A DNA stretch of 64,000 nucleotides from Escherichia coli. GTDB taxonomy: Bacteria; Pseudomonadota; Gammaproteobacteria; Enterobacterales; Enterobacteriaceae. Location: assembly GCF_003334255.1 (NCBI RefSeq), contig NZ_QOWU01000008.1; one strand, written 5' to 3'. Under the pieces are notes generated by a model. The model had not been told where the DNA came from. It worked only from the letters and a program-made list of their open reading frames with translations, and did not search any database. Positions 5,381 to 32,262 of this stretch are shown here, piece by piece (positions within the stretch are counted from its first letter, which is position 1; each line of letters starts with the position of its first letter). The position numbers and the translations under genes are program-made.

Positions 5381-5618
5381 CTGTAGGCCGGATAAGGCGT
5401 TCACGCCGCATCCGGCAATCGGTGCACGATGCCTGATGCGACGCTTGCGCGTCTTATCATGCCTACAGCCGTTGCCGAACGTAGGCCGGATAAGGCATTT
5501 ACGCCGCATCCGGCAATCGGTGCACGATGCCTGATGCGACGCTTGCGCGTCTTATCATGCCTACAACCGTTGCCGAACGTAGGCTGGATAAGGCGTTTAC
5601 GCCGCATCCGGCAATTCT
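5381..5618. repeat. REP/BIME array: about 2.4 tandem copies of a 98-bp unit built from REP palindromes
   Basis: TAGGCCGGATAAGGCG..CGCCGCATCCGGCA recurs at 5384, 5482 and 5580; classic REP consensus in the aceA-aceK spacer. Confidence 0.85.
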
Positions 5619-17398: not shown

Positions 17399-18271
17399 AT
17401 GCTGCCCGACTCATCAGTCCGTTTAAATAAATACATCAGCGAAAGCGGAATTTGCTCACGCCGCGAAGCGGATCGCTATATCGAGCAAGGCAATGTGTTC
17501 CTTAATGGCAAGCGAGCCACCATTGGCGATCAGGTGAAACCCGGCGACGTTGTGAAAGTAAACGGTCAGTTGATTGAACCTCGGGAAGCCGAAGATTTGG
17601 TACTTATCGCCCTGAACAAGCCCGTTGGTATTGTAAGCACCACCGAAGATGGCGAGCGCGATAACATTGTCGATTTCGTTAACCACAGCAAACGCGTGTT
17701 CCCGATTGGCCGCCTGGATAAAGACTCCCAGGGGCTGATTTTCCTCACCAATCACGGCGATCTGGTGAATAAGATCCTGCGTGCTGGCAATGATCATGAG
17801 AAAGAGTATCTGGTGACGGTCGATAAACCGATTACCGAGGAGTTTATTCGCGGCATGAGTGCGGGGGTGCCAATCCTCGGGACAGTGACCAAAAAGTGCA
17901 AAGTTAAAAAAGAAGCGCCGTTTGTCTTCCGCATTACCCTGGTGCAGGGGCTGAACCGTCAGATCCGGCGCATGTGCGAGCATTTCGGCTATGAAGTGAA
18001 AAAGCTGGAACGCACGCGCATCATGAACGTTAGCTTAAGCGGCATTCCGCTGGGGGAATGGCGCAATTTAACCGACGATGAGTTAATCGACCTCTTTAAG
18101 CTCATTGAAAATTCCTCTTCCGAGGTAAAACCTAAAGCGAAGGCCAAACCGAAAACAGCGGGCATCAAACGTCCAGTCGTTAAGATGGAAAAAACGGCGG
18201 AAAAAGGCGGTCGCCCGGCGTCCAACGGTAAGCGTTTTACCTCGCCGGGGCGTAAAAAGAAGGGGCGCTGA
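17399..18271 (+). CDS. rluF: 23S rRNA pseudouridine synthase RluF
   Basis: 290 aa ORF; N-terminal S4-like region ([24 protein letters not shown]) then RluA/RsuA-like catalytic region, basic C-terminal tail. Confidence 0.9.
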
Positions 18272-18403
18272 TTAACGCCTCAGACTGATGAAAACGGCCC
18301 AAAAGTGCCCGGACAGTCCCCTCGCCCCTTCGGGAAAAGGGTTAGGGTGAGGGGAAAATTGTGTTCACACTGACGAGTGAAAATCTCAGGCGTTGATTGT
18401 GGA

Positions 18404-18676
18404 TTAGCGCCTGCCGCGCGTCGACGTATTTGCTGACCAGCTAAATGACGCTTCAGGATCCGGTTTATAAGCCTGCTTTTTCTTCAACTGGCGGGCTTTT
18501 TTCGCTTCAGCCTCACGCTCAACCATTAATTTATCGATGTAATCTTTCTTAATGCTGTTGGTTTCGGAGTTGGTCAATACGCGACCATGCGCAATCCGCG
18601 CCCGATCCAGCAGTGTTTTAAGTTCACGCTGCTCGCGTTCAGTCATCTCTTTTTGGGTAATACGGGGGAGTGCCAT
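18404..18676 (-). CDS. yjbD: Small highly charged protein YjbD (DUF3811-like)
   Basis: 90 aa ORF rich in K/E/R; recognised as YjbD. Confidence 0.8.
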   Translation of the reverse strand: MALPRITQKEMTEREQRELKTLLDRARIAHGRVLTNSETNSIKKDYIDKLMVEREAEAKKARQLKKKQAYKPDPEASFSWSANTSTRGRR

Positions 18677-18928
18677 GATGGTGCCCTCAGTGAGCCAGAG
18701 AGTTCAGTGTACGGGAATTCGTTTGCGAGCAGAACTGATAATATTCATTTTGCCTTCTCTTAACTATTTATCTCTTTCGATAATTAATTAGAGATGCAGA
18801 TAAAAAAATTAAAGGCAATTATTCTCCGATAAAGACGCTGGTTAACAGAGTACAGGCTCGTTTATTGATGAGCATAGTGACAAGAAAATCAATACGGCCC
18901 GAAATATAGCTTCCAGGCCATACAGTAT

Positions 18929-20278
18929 TTACTCAAACAAATTACTATGCAGTTTTTGCACCACCTGCTCGGCATCTTCGCCGGGCACCAGGAAGCACAG
19001 GTTATGGCTGGATGCGCCATAACAAATCATGCGAATGTTGAACGGTTCCAGTACGCCGAATACCTCTTTGCCAACGCCGCAGGCTTTTGACAGGTCATTG
19101 CCAATCAACGCGACCAGCGCCAGACCTTCTTCCACCTCCACCCGACACAGTGCGGAAAGCTCCATCAGCAGAGATTGCGTCAGCAACGTATCGCCAGTGG
19201 AGGTTGAACCGGTGGTATCAAGGGTTAATGCCACGCTCACTTCTGACGTGGTGATTAAGTCTACCGAAATATTATGCCGCGCGAGGATGCCGAAAACTTC
19301 CGCGAGGAAACCGCGAGAATGCAGCATATTCAGGCTGTGCAAAGTGAGCAGAGTCTGATTGCGACGAAGCGCCAGAGCGCGGAACAGCGGCGGATTTTCA
19401 GTTTTATTGCACACCAGCGTACCACCTGCGCGTGGGTCTTTGCTGGAGCCGACAAAGACCGGGATATCGCTGCGTACTGCGGGTAGCAACGTTGCCGGAT
19501 GCAGTACTTTTGCACCAAAAGTTGCCATCTCTGCCGCTTCGGCAAACGCGATTTCATCAATGCGTTTTGCTGCGGAAACTACGCGTGGATCGGTGGTGTA
19601 GATGCCCGGGACGTCGGTCCAGATATCAACACGAGATGCGTGTAAAGCCTCCGCCAGCAAGGCTGCCGTATAATCGCTGCCTCCACGGCCAAGCGTCGTT
19701 GTACGACCTTTATTTTCGCTACCGATAAATCCCTGGGTGATCACTAAGCCTTCATTGAGACGTGGGAGCAGCTGCAGCGCGGCCAGTTCCGCCAGCGCGG
19801 CTATATCTGGCTCTGCACGACCAAATCGGTCGTTGGTACGCATCACTTTACGTACATCAAACCACTGTGCCTGAACATCGCGTTCGCGCAGGATCTCAAC
19901 AAACAGCAGGGTCGACATCAGCTCGCCGTGGCTGACCAGCTCATCTGTCAGCGCCGGAGACGTTGCCAGCGCCGCCGCTTCTGCCAGAACAGTAATGTTC
20001 TCCAGCAGACGTTCAATCTCTTCACGGATAACGTTCGGGTAACGCAGACGTTCCAGAATGGCAAACTGGATGTTGCGGATAGCGTCGAGTTTTTCGAATC
20101 GCTCGCCAGGTTCCAGTCCTTCAGCTAAAGCGACCAGCAGATTAGTGATACCAGCAGAAGCCGAGAGGACAACTAAACGCACGTTGGCATCAGAAAGCAC
20201 AATATCAGCGCTGCGGTTCATGGCGTCAAAATCAGCTACGCTGGTACCGCCAAATTTGGAGACAACAATTTCAGACAT
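18929..20278 (-). CDS. lysC: Aspartokinase III (lysine-sensitive)
   Basis: 449 aa ORF starting MSEIVVSKFGGTSVADFDAMNRSADIVL, recognised as LysC. Confidence 0.95.
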   Translation of the reverse strand: MSEIVVSKFGGTSVADFDAMNRSADIVLSDANVRLVVLSASAGITNLLVALAEGLEPGERFEKLDAIRNIQFAILERLRYPNVIREEIERLLENITVLAEAAALATSPALTDELVSHGELMSTLLFVEILRERDVQAQWFDVRKVMRTNDRFGRAEPDIAALAELAALQLLPRLNEGLVITQGFIGSENKGRTTTLGRGGSDYTAALLAEALHASRVDIWTDVPGIYTTDPRVVSAAKRIDEIAFAEAAEMATFGAKVLHPATLLPAVRSDIPVFVGSSKDPRAGGTLVCNKTENPPLFRALALRRNQTLLTLHSLNMLHSRGFLAEVFGILARHNISVDLITTSEVSVALTLDTTGSTSTGDTLLTQSLLMELSALCRVEVEEGLALVALIGNDLSKACGVGKEVFGVLEPFNIRMICYGASSHNLCFLVPGEDAEQVVQKLHSNLFE

Positions 20279-20299
20279 AACTACCTCGTGTCAGGGGAT

Positions 20300-20520
20300 C
20301 CATTTTCAGCCTTGGCACAAGGGAAGAGCGGAAGACGGGTGGGCGCAGAGCGATACTTCGCTACTATTTTCACCCAGAAGTGCTCCACCACTTGCGAAAC
20401 GCCCGACTGCGAACGCTTCTGGTGACAACCCAGGGGATTCAGCCCCTGTAGCCGATGATGAACGTGGCCAGCCGTTCAATCACCTCGGCGATGCACCCCC
20501 TCAGGTGTTATCACAGGACT
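20300..20520 (-). promoter_or_regulatory. lysC 5' leader with lysine riboswitch (L-box); boundaries approximate
   Basis: About 320 bp GC-rich non-coding leader between lysC ATG (20278) and pgi promoter; E. coli lysC is known to carry a lysine riboswitch; structure not folded here. Confidence 0.55.
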
Positions 20521-20802
20521 GGCTCCTCCAACACCGTTACTTGGGCAACGCGCCTCTTCTGGCCTGCGCTAGCGCAGGTAGTACATTTATAAATAAAGGG
20601 TGAGCGGGGCGGTTGTCAACGATGGGGTCATGCGGATTTTTCATCCACTCCTGGCGGTCAGTAGTTCAGCTAATAAATGCTTCACTGCGCTAAGGGTTTA
20701 CACTCAACATTACGCTAACGGCACTAAAACCATCACATTTTTCTGTGACTGGCGCTACAATCTTCCAAAGTCACAATTCTCAAAATCAGAAGAGTATTGC
20801 TA

Positions 20803-22452
20803 ATGAAAAACATCAATCCAACGCAGACCGCTGCCTGGCAGGCACTACAGAAACACTTCGATGAAATGAAAGACGTTACGATCGCCGATCTTTTTGCTAA
20901 AGACGGCGATCGTTTTTCTAAGTTCTCCGCAACCTTCGACGATCAGATGCTGGTGGATTACTCCAAAAACCGCATCACTGAAGAGACGCTGGCGAAATTA
21001 CAGGATCTGGCGAAAGAGTGCGATCTGGCGGGCGCGATTAAGTCGATGTTCTCTGGCGAGAAGATCAACCGCACTGAAAACCGCGCCGTGCTGCACGTAG
21101 CGCTGCGTAACCGTAGCAATACCCCGATTTTGGTTGATGGCAAAGACGTAATGCCGGAAGTCAACGCGGTGCTGGAGAAGATGAAAACCTTCTCAGAAGC
21201 GATTATTTCCGGTGAGTGGAAAGGTTATACCGGCAAAGCAATCACTGACGTAGTGAACATCGGGATCGGCGGTTCTGACCTCGGCCCATACATGGTGACC
21301 GAAGCTCTGCGTCCGTACAAAAACCACCTGAACATGCACTTTGTTTCTAACGTCGATGGGACTCACATCGCGGAAGTGCTGAAAAAAGTAAACCCGGAAA
21401 CCACGCTGTTCCTGGTAGCATCTAAAACCTTCACCACTCAGGAAACTATGACCAACGCCCATAGCGCGCGTGACTGGTTCCTGAAAGCGGCAGGTGATGA
21501 AAAACACGTTGCAAAACACTTTGCGGCGCTTTCCACCAATGCCAAAGCCGTTGGCGAGTTTGGTATTGATACTGCCAACATGTTCGAGTTCTGGGACTGG
21601 GTTGGCGGCCGTTACTCTTTGTGGTCAGCGATTGGCCTGTCGATTGTTCTCTCCATCGGCTTTGATAACTTCGTTGAACTGCTTTCCGGCGCACACGCGA
21701 TGGACAAGCATTTCTCCACCACGCCTGCCGAGAAAAACCTGCCTGTACTGCTGGCGCTGATTGGCATCTGGTACAACAATTTCTTTGGTGCGGAAACTGA
21801 AGCGATTCTGCCGTATGACCAGTATATGCACCGTTTCGCGGCGTACTTCCAGCAGGGCAATATGGAGTCCAACGGTAAGTATGTTGACCGTAACGGTAAC
21901 GTTGTGGATTACCAGACTGGCCCGATTATCTGGGGTGAACCAGGCACTAACGGTCAGCACGCGTTCTACCAGCTGATCCACCAGGGAACCAAAATGGTAC
22001 CGTGCGATTTCATCGCTCCGGCTATCACCCATAACCCGCTCTCTGATCATCACCAGAAACTGCTGTCTAACTTCTTCGCCCAGACCGAAGCGCTGGCGTT
22101 TGGTAAATCCCGCGAAGTGGTTGAGCAGGAATATCGTGATCAGGGTAAAGATCCGGCAACGCTTGACTACGTGGTGCCGTTCAAAGTATTCGAAGGTAAC
22201 CGCCCGACCAACTCCATCCTGCTGCGTGAAATCACTCCGTTCAGCCTGGGTGCGTTGATTGCGCTGTATGAGCACAAAATCTTTACTCAGGGCGTGATCC
22301 TGAACATCTTCACCTTCGACCAGTGGGGCGTGGAACTGGGTAAACAGCTGGCGAACCGTATTCTGCCAGAGCTGAAAGATGATAAAGAAATCAGCAGCCA
22401 CGATAGCTCGACCAATGGTCTGATTAACCGCTATAAAGCGTGGCGCGGTTAA
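20803..22452 (+). CDS. pgi: Glucose-6-phosphate isomerase
   Basis: ORF 20797-22452 trimmed to ATG at 20803 ([25 protein letters not shown]), 549 aa. Confidence 0.95.
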
Positions 22453-22464
22453 TCATCGTCGATA

Positions 22465-22553
22465 TGTAGGCCGGATAAGGCGTTCACGCCGCATCCGGCA
22501 ACCGATGCCTGATGCGACGCGGTCGCGTCTTATCAGGCCTACAGGTCGATGCC
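22465..22553. repeat. REP palindromic elements downstream of pgi
   Basis: ATGTAGGCCGGATAAGGCGTTCACGCCGCATCCGGCA ... GCGTCTTATCAGGCCTACAGG. Confidence 0.8.
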
Positions 22554-22615
22554 GATATGTACATCGTATTCGGCAATTAATACATAGCACGATTGATTAA
22601 ATAACCTTAATAACA

Positions 22616-22642
22616 ATGCCGACGTTATGTCGGCATTTTTTT
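22616..22642 (+). terminator. Rho-independent terminator (pgi transcript)
   Basis: Hairpin ATGCCGAC-GTTA-GTCGGCAT followed by T7. Confidence 0.8.
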
Positions 22643-22950
22643 ATCAGATAAATCCCCTTGTCTGTGATTTAACGGAAATCATACCATGAGGTTAATCCTA
22701 AAATAGATTTTTAATCGTTGTTTATTTCGGAAAATACGCAGATTAATTGCTTTTGTTTTTATTTTAAGTTTATGATTTTTATTGTTATTTAAATATAAGT
22801 TGAAACTTATATTTGATATTCATTCCAATTATCCTAAAACGCCATCGCTAATTCCCCGCGCCGTAATTCGCATGCTTTAGTTGTGTATACTCGATCCCGC
22901 CCGAAATGTTTTTGGGTAAATCTCCATTCATTCAATGAAGGGAAATTGTT

Positions 22951-32120: not shown

Positions 32121-32140
32121 GGGGTTCTTCCTCATTCCAG

Positions 32141-32262
32141 GACGGATAAGGCTTTCACGCCTTATCCGACAACAACTGCCTGATGCGACGCTGACGCGTC
32201 TTATCAGGCCTACATACGTTTCGGTTTTGTAGGCCGGACAAGGCGTTCACGCCGCATCCGGC
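32141..32262. repeat. REP/BIME palindromic elements in the malE-malF spacer
   Basis: GGACGGATAAGGCTTTCACGCCTTATCCGAC ... GTAGGCCGGACAAGGCGTTCACGCCGCATCCGGCA. Confidence 0.8.

Follow-up and report, generated by a model that had tools for sequence, protein, structure and literature searches.

The lysC leader of Escherichia coli: a lysine riboswitch beside a separate pgi promoter, and related leaders without the aptamer

The window, by which is meant the whole stretch of 64,000 nt that was analysed, is Escherichia coli chromosome, and within it lysC and pgi are divergent neighbours separated by an intergenic region of 524 bp (20279-20802). A 681-nt query covering this region (20200-20880) was found in all of the 5426 complete E. 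coli genomes searched, with an identity of at least 95% in every one of them and of at least 99% in 5421. The two coding sequences were taken from the ORF list and from RefSeq, in the case of lysC from the annotation of the identical region.

18929-20278, minus strand: lysC coding sequence, lysine-sensitive aspartokinase III, 449 aa
20276-20278, minus strand: lysC AUG (G309 of the leader numbering is 20276)
20803-22452, plus strand: pgi coding sequence, ATG at 20803

In the published numbering of the lysC leader, the AUG occupies +307-309 and Rho-dependent stops fall at G309, G349, U354-357 and A364 (PMC10946432). Therefore, the transcription start site (TSS) of lysC was placed at 20584, which gives a leader of 306 nt, and with this assignment the base identities at G309, G349, U354-357 and A364 all match the window. 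With 58% G+C, the leader exceeds both the remaining spacer (43%) and the window as a whole (50%). The lysC promoter was missed by the promoter scan because its -10 hexamer (TTATTT) is weak; both promoter hexamers are kept across 56 enterobacterial spacers, and outside them the best-conserved element of the spacer is ATGAAAAATCCGCAT. A minus-strand match of the promoter scan at 20229-20201 was set aside, as it falls within the lysC coding sequence. The initial annotation had described a GC-rich non-coding stretch of about 320 nt before lysC; such a stretch is real, but only 306 nt of it are leader, as positions 20585-20600 belong to the promoter (-1 to -16, with the -10 hexamer included).

20279-20584, minus strand: lysC 5' leader, 306 nt (+1 is 20584; the window coordinate equals 20585 minus the leader position)
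20591-20619, minus strand: lysC promoter, with -35 TTGACA at 20614-20619, a 17-nt spacer and -10 TTATTT at 20591-20596
20630-20644, minus strand: conserved element ATGAAAAATCCGCAT, -60 to -46 of lysC, containing T-N11-A, at least 95% conserved
20732-20767, plus strand: pgi promoter, with -10 TACAAT at 20756-20761 and the TSS, an A, at 20767 (promoter scan and PMC2759082)

The start site of pgi, mapped by 5' RACE and by in vitro transcription with sigma70 and sigma38, is an A located 36 nt upstream of the ATG (PMC2759082). From TSS to TSS, the distance between lysC (20584) and pgi (20767) is 183 bp, in agreement with the earlier expectation that the pgi promoter would lie within about 200 bp of that of lysC. 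As the -35 hexamers are 112 bp apart, the lysC and pgi polymerases do not overlap. It had also been suggested that both genes may be regulated head-to-head, which would require a single bidirectional control region from which lysC and pgi were co-regulated. The divergent orientation and closeness of the promoters are in line with this proposal. In most of around 65 enterobacterial loci, 215-238 bp lie between the lysC TSS and the pgi ATG despite large differences in leader length; this near-constant spacing is the sole hint of a constraint linking both genes. However, conservation in the 56 spacers is arranged in two separate modules, one comprising the pgi 5' UTR and promoter (approximately 20725-20805) and the other the upstream element, -35 and -10 of lysC (20591-20644), with around 75 bp of poorly conserved DNA between them. 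No palindrome or operator shared between the two start sites was found by the repeat search or in the 56-spacer conservation, the former yielding only short two-copy matches in the intergenic region. The reported regulators are also different, with ArgP and lysine acting on lysC and a dual sigma70/sigma38 promoter driving pgi (PMC2759082), and no published regulator common to lysC and pgi was found. A shared control region is therefore very unlikely, and the joint regulation of lysC and pgi is unsupported.

A perfect palindrome, TCACA-N6-TGTGA (20733-20748), overlaps the -35 region of pgi. Relative to the CRP consensus, its half-sites are in inverse order, and conservation of the arms in Enterobacteriaceae is only partial.

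When the window was scanned with the Rfam covariance models, minus-strand positions 20566-20370 matched the Lysine family (RF00168) over the whole model (1-182 of 182) with 99.5 bits against a gathering threshold of 30, and with E-values of 3e-25 in the whole-window scan and 3.6e-27 in a local scan. This was the sole riboswitch match in the whole window at the gathering threshold, and a permissive scan of both strands of 20150-20900 detected no family besides Lysine. The match is on the sense strand of lysC, which follows immediately 3', and ends 91 nt upstream of its AUG; the same 197 nt are annotated as a riboswitch in RefSeq. The initial annotation had identified the element before lysC as an L-box lysine riboswitch, a reading that the lack of a minus-strand Lysine match in Rfam was to overturn; the clear, full-length minus-strand match found in that very interval, together with the RefSeq annotation, confirms it. 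The other Rfam matches in the window correspond to four copies of naRNA4, a REP-type repeat (5386-5463, 5484-5561, 22469-22539 and 32140-32210), to STnc430 downstream of pgi (22605-22754, minus strand) and to a 5'-truncated 5S rRNA (1-104).

20370-20566, minus strand: lysine riboswitch aptamer, helices P1-P5, +19 to +215 (RF00168)
20556-20562, minus strand: 5' strand of P1, CCAGAAG, +23 to +29 (Rfam alignment)
20374-20380, minus strand: 3' strand of P1, CUUCUGG, +205 to +211, common to the anti-P1 helix
20519-20523, minus strand: L2 loop GCCAG, +62 to +66, L2-L3 kissing interaction
20467-20471, minus strand: L3 loop CUGGC, +114 to +118, partner of L2
20563-20578, minus strand: 5'-proximal hairpin CCUGCGC-UA-GCGCAGG, +7 to +22 (folding)

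The consensus structure of the model was mapped on the E. coli sequence, where 47 of its 51 pairs are canonical. For comparison, 80 enterobacterial species-representative lysC loci were fetched and their 46 distinct aptamer-bearing leaders aligned. The core strings AGAGG-GC, CGCCGAGG, UGUCACC and GGAGC-CUUCUGG, putative junction and core nucleotides of the lysine pocket, agree with the consensus of the model and vary little or not at all among the 46 leaders. The OFF-state structure was paired in 86.4% of cells, compared to 38-46% when the 3' partners were slid by 1-3 columns. Pairs changed on both sides were detected in P2 (5 of 9), P2a (7 of 8) and P3 (8 of 11), P4 was 99.8% paired, and five pairs of P5 were invariant and paired, as were the six model pairs of P1 (100% paired). 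The L2-L3 kissing loop, the hallmark tertiary contact of the family, was paired in 81.9% of cells against 11-40% when slid; at its +62/+118 pair, 25 leaders have GC, 15 AU and 6 GU, and none is unpaired. In the 5'-proximal hairpin, both-sided changes affected four of six pairs, although only 70% of cells were paired, because some species carry other sequence there.

The 5' strand of P5 contains a second copy of the P1 5' strand, CCAGAAG (20416-20422, +163-169). Local pairing of this copy with the CUUCUGG of the P1 3' strand would be possible, and it is kept as CCAGAA(G/A) in the orthologues; it may be a folding decoy or an intermediate. In Escherichia albertii, Klebsiella, Raoultella and Kosakonia, the part of the leader that separates the start site from P1 is longer, by approximately 87 to over 300 nt (positions 1107-1213 of locus L007, and between the lysC promoter block and P1 in L023, L027, L031 and their relatives). 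These extra sequences share GAAAG.C...GGUAAU just 5' of P1, and no Rfam match was found in them.

Six-frame translation of the region gives ORFs of 181 aa (plus strand, 20058-20603), 57 aa (minus strand, 20306-20479), 45 aa (plus strand, 20288-20425 and 20455-20592) and 67 aa (plus strand, 20600-20803), which would be the grounds for considering that the interval codes for a protein or a leader peptide. Nevertheless, substitutions among the orthologues are paired compensatory changes in RNA helices, with no coding pattern, CDS annotation is absent from the interval in RefSeq, and the 67-aa ORF crosses the non-conserved centre of the spacer. The probability of a coding function is thus practically nil. 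By its full-length covariance-model match, its five helices, its L2-L3 kissing loop and its position upstream of a lysine biosynthesis gene, the lysC leader RNA is a lysine riboswitch of family RF00168; the binding of lysine rests on the literature, as direct binding of L-lysine by this RNA is described in work cited by PMC10946432.

Downstream of the aptamer, the following elements of the expression platform were located.

20371-20395, minus strand: 5' arm of the anti-P1 or antisequestering helix, +190 to +214 (full-length minimum free energy structure, MFE; helix described in PMC10946432)
20317-20341, minus strand: 3' arm of the anti-P1 helix, +244 to +268 (folding)
20319-20345, minus strand: C-rich tract, +240 to +266 (composition; published Rho-loading or rut region, PMC10946432)
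20332-20335, minus strand: RNase E Site1, +250-253, within the C-rich tract (PMC10946432)
20284-20322, minus strand: Shine-Dalgarno (SD)-sequestering hairpin, +263 to +301 (local folds), with the SD GAGG at 20284-20287 (+298-301)
20221-20236, minus strand: Rho-dependent stops within the lysC ORF, with G349 at 20236, U354-357 at 20228-20231 and A364 at 20221 (PMC10946432)

The exact base pairs of the anti-P1 and sequestering helices are those obtained by folding. In these folds, U209-G211 belong both to the anti-P1 helix and to the P1 3' strand, a small inner hairpin (+219-239) follows the aptamer, and CCUU(G) pairs with the GAGG of the SD in the sequestering hairpin. Nowhere in the leader is C so frequent and G so scarce as in the 3' arm of the anti-P1 helix, with 50% C and 17% G over +241-270. 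In transcripts ending at G309, the predicted unpaired fraction of the C-rich tract was 0.73 when the upstream partner was withheld (P1 formed) and 0.31 when it was free, in agreement with the published model in which the rut and the RNase E sites become exposed. By contrast, no clear difference in SD accessibility was found by folding between ON-like and OFF-like states of transcripts ending at +309, the SD being paired in both, and the results of ensemble folding shift with transcript length. As the SD switch was not reproduced by folding, the mechanism is taken from experiment. The MFE of the whole leader was only marginally better than that of shuffled sequences (z = -1.6), as expected for a fold that depends on tertiary contacts and on the ligand, and the covariance model and covariation were relied on in its place. 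In the RNA folding proposed at the outset as a check, constrained and truncated folds reproduced the anti-P1 helix and showed the C-rich tract masked, whereas a robust switch in the accessibility of the SD was not obtained.

Across the 46 leaders, the SD-sequestering hairpin was paired in 97.6% of cells and the anti-P1 helix in 87-99%, with one-sided changes only in the latter. No compensatory changes were found in P1, the anti-P1 helix or the SD-sequestering hairpin of these leaders, where the sequence itself is conserved, and the platform helices either vary by one-sided GC/GU changes or are invariant. As they are conserved without covariation, the comparative data are compatible with these helices, without being an independent proof of them.

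No minus-strand intrinsic terminator was detected in the lysC leader by the terminator scan. The one terminator-like site of the interval, a hairpin followed by a T-run, is on the plus strand (20349-20362). It mirrors the inner hairpin of the platform (+223-236), and its occurrence is probably incidental.

We are almost certain that the interval is the E. coli lysC leader with its lysine riboswitch, operating through the published mechanism of lysine, SD, RNase E and Rho, and that the pgi promoter is separate from it. The present analysis established the identity and fold of the aptamer with its covariation and kissing loop, the degree to which the platform helices are conserved, and the base composition of the C-rich tract. 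That the switch depends on lysine, blocks translation, and involves cleavage by RNase E and termination by Rho is taken from published experiments. According to this mechanism, the binding of lysine would stabilise P1 (+23-29 with +205-211), the helix that closes the five-helix aptamer (+19 to +215). In the absence of lysine, +190-214, a segment made up of the P1 3' strand and neighbouring bases, would pair with +244-268 to form the anti-P1 helix, which would bury the C-rich tract and RNase E Site1 and compete with the SD-sequestering hairpin (+263-301), and lysC would thus be transcribed, stable and translated. With lysine, the formation of P1 would exclude the anti-P1 helix, so that the SD would be sequestered; Rho, loading on the now single-stranded C-rich tract, would terminate both at the G309 pause and deeper within the ORF, and the leader would be cleaved by RNase E.

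The decisive experiments on this model, namely in-line probing, P1 mutants, reporters in rne-131 and rho-R66S backgrounds and in vitro Rho termination, are already published. In the literature cited, a lysine-dependent change on in-line probing of the +1 to +215 RNA and an effect of mutations that disrupt and then restore P1 are reported. Upon lysine binding, P1 is stabilised, the SD sequestered, and the RNase E sites and a rut near +240 are exposed (PMC10946432). G309 (20276) is both a pause and a point of termination by Rho and NusG, which reached 56% with lysine and 31% without it (PMC10946432). Repression by lysine of leader fusions relies on Rho, the assembly of RNase E and Site1; it is weaker in the rho-R66S background and, with the shortest fusion, also in rne-131, and the deletion of Site1 relieves early termination (PMC10946432). 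In addition, lysC has a Rho termination score of 6.1 by ChIP (PMC5499598), and 3'-end mapping included it among the 5' UTRs with Rho-dependent ends (bioRxiv 2020.07.18.207399).

The riboswitch is fixed within E. coli, with insertion sequences parting the aptamer from lysC in two strains. In EECO1006 (L002), an IS1 is located in the region of the P1 3' strand, at +203 to +213 (equivalent to 20372-20382), with this stretch duplicated, and parts the aptamer from the expression platform and lysC. In WB61 (L083), an ISEcp1 unit is accompanied by a 113-bp duplication of the leader (equivalent to 20286-20398); lysC keeps only leader positions +187 to +306 and lies downstream of the ISEcp1 transposase in the same orientation, and may be expressed independently of the riboswitch.

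Among the 80 enterobacterial loci, 78 had enough upstream sequence to be classified by nhmmer, and an aptamer was present in 46 and absent from 32. No Lysine match at the Rfam gathering threshold was found in any of the 29 aptamer-less loci scanned. The 32 aptamer-less loci of the sample are listed below.

Aptamer-less loci, approximately 80-170 nt upstream of the lysC ATG: L005, L006, L008, L010, L012-L020, L022, L035, L037, L045, L046, L049, L050, L052, L065-L067, L070, L071, L074, L076, L077, L079, L080 and L082

The aptamer-less loci have one conserved leader of about 78 nt in common. The promoter block is unchanged in it and is followed by a short 5' part, a stretch rich in pyrimidines and the hairpin that sequesters the SD, the last of these being kept in 15 of 15 such leaders. 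After the CCA-GG of this hairpin, all 31 scorable short leaders have UC[G/A]C, whereas all 45 scorable long ones have a CUGA-like sequence. An upstream ORF noticed in some short leaders was rejected, as its opening ATG is not conserved. In a neighbour-joining tree of lysC, the short form appears in at least eight separate branches: Citrobacter, Enterobacter/Lelliottia, Trabulsiella, Atlantibacter, Pluralibacter with Phytobacter massiliensis, Superficieibacter, a Buttiauxella MAG, and Escherichia sp. E1V33 with Escherichia whittamii. The last two are the Escherichia found among the aptamer-less species, and the tree splits this genus into a riboswitch clade and an aptamer-less clade. In E. whittamii (L006), compared with window positions 17429-22009, pgi and the far flank are 93-98% identical to those of E. 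coli, compared to 73-88% for the lysC coding sequence and 74% for the leader, the latter being 95% identical to that of Citrobacter werkmanii. Escherichia sp. E1V33 (L005) behaved likewise in this comparison, with 93-98% for the flanks, 73-88% for the lysC coding sequence and around 74% for the leader. As the flanks are close and lysC and its leader are distant, both of the latter constitute a deeply divergent allele within Escherichia.

A 6-nt direct repeat, CUGCGC, occurs at +8-13 (20572-20577) and +237-242 (20343-20348), 229 nt apart, and a deletion between its copies gives a leader of 77 nt, matching the length of the natural short leaders. This repeat would also allow recurrent deletion to the 77-nt product. 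Recurrent deletion as the only origin of the short leaders is disfavoured, because the loop signature splits short from long leaders regardless of genus. The pattern suggests a single old deletion allele that moved between lineages. As a tentative reading, which we hold to be somewhat less probable than its converse, the lysC riboswitch would be a dispensable and exchangeable cassette, removed once by an ancient excision of about 229 nt, and the short allele would have spread by presumed allelic replacement. Such an excision would have taken out the aptamer together with the 5' arm of the anti-P1 helix but spared the C-rich tract and the hairpin that sequesters the SD, and its product would be the short-leader allele of about 78 nt, with GG-UCGC in the hairpin loop in place of GG-CUGA. 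The aptamer-less species may have a second copy of lysC that bears a riboswitch. In one literature survey, the lysine riboswitch system is described as well conserved in Enterobacteriales and its loss is not discussed; aptamer loss may have been noted elsewhere in the literature.

The 32 aptamer-less species among the 78 classifiable ones also bear on whether the repression of lysC by lysine takes place mainly at the promoter, through ArgP, with little contribution from the long leader. A report citing Marbaniang and Gowrishankar (2011) indicates that ArgP activates lysC transcription and that lysine prevents this activation, and the almost invariant T-N11-A element at -60 to -46 of lysC, ATGAAAAATCCGCAT, is a candidate site for this LysR-type regulator. 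However, when the leader was fused to foreign promoters (lacUV5 or pBAD), a 2- to 8.5-fold repression by lysine was retained (PMC10946432), and the aptamer is fixed, with at least 95% identity, in 5426 of 5426 E. coli genomes. A mainly promoter-level repression is therefore unlikely. The ArgP and riboswitch layers are additive and not mutually exclusive, and the preferred explanation remains that of a lysine riboswitch acting in the leader.

The lysC lysine riboswitch is already known in detail, and its finding here is correct but ordinary. It illustrates that a long, structured leader rich in G+C can be recognised and correctly named from sequence alone, and it maps, at the level of coordinates, a model riboswitch in which control of translation is combined with control through Rho and RNase E. 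The aptamer-less leaders, a by-product of the comparison, could matter more than the element of the window itself. About 40% of the enterobacterial species sampled carry no aptamer upstream of the pgi-linked lysC, an absence that bears on proposals to target the lysine riboswitch with antibacterials in Enterobacter and Citrobacter, and these natural platform-only leaders offer a test of the sequestering hairpin and C-rich tract without the sensor.

With respect to known systems, the element is the same as the E. coli lysC riboswitch described previously (RF00168; Caron et al. 2012; Ghosh et al. 2024, PMC10946432). The bases published for G309, G349, U354-357, A364 and Site1 (+250-253) match the window, nothing detectably different was observed, and the window copy is the standard allele. 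The L-box riboswitch of Bacillus subtilis lysC is also an OFF switch responding to lysine, with an intrinsic terminator as its platform, and was reportedly described in 2003 by Sudarsan and co-workers and by Grundy and co-workers. Both riboswitches have in common the aptamer family, with its five-helix junction and L2-L3 kissing loop, the regulated gene and the OFF response to lysine, whereas the E. coli platform acts through SD sequestration, Rho and RNase E and not through an intrinsic terminator. The thiC and ribB riboswitches of E. coli resemble that of lysC in that the ligand exposes a C-rich Rho-loading tract and termination takes place at a pause near the start codon, although their ligands and aptamers are different. 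In lysC, the half-life of the G309 pause is reported to be independent of the ligand, unlike in thiC (PMC10946432).
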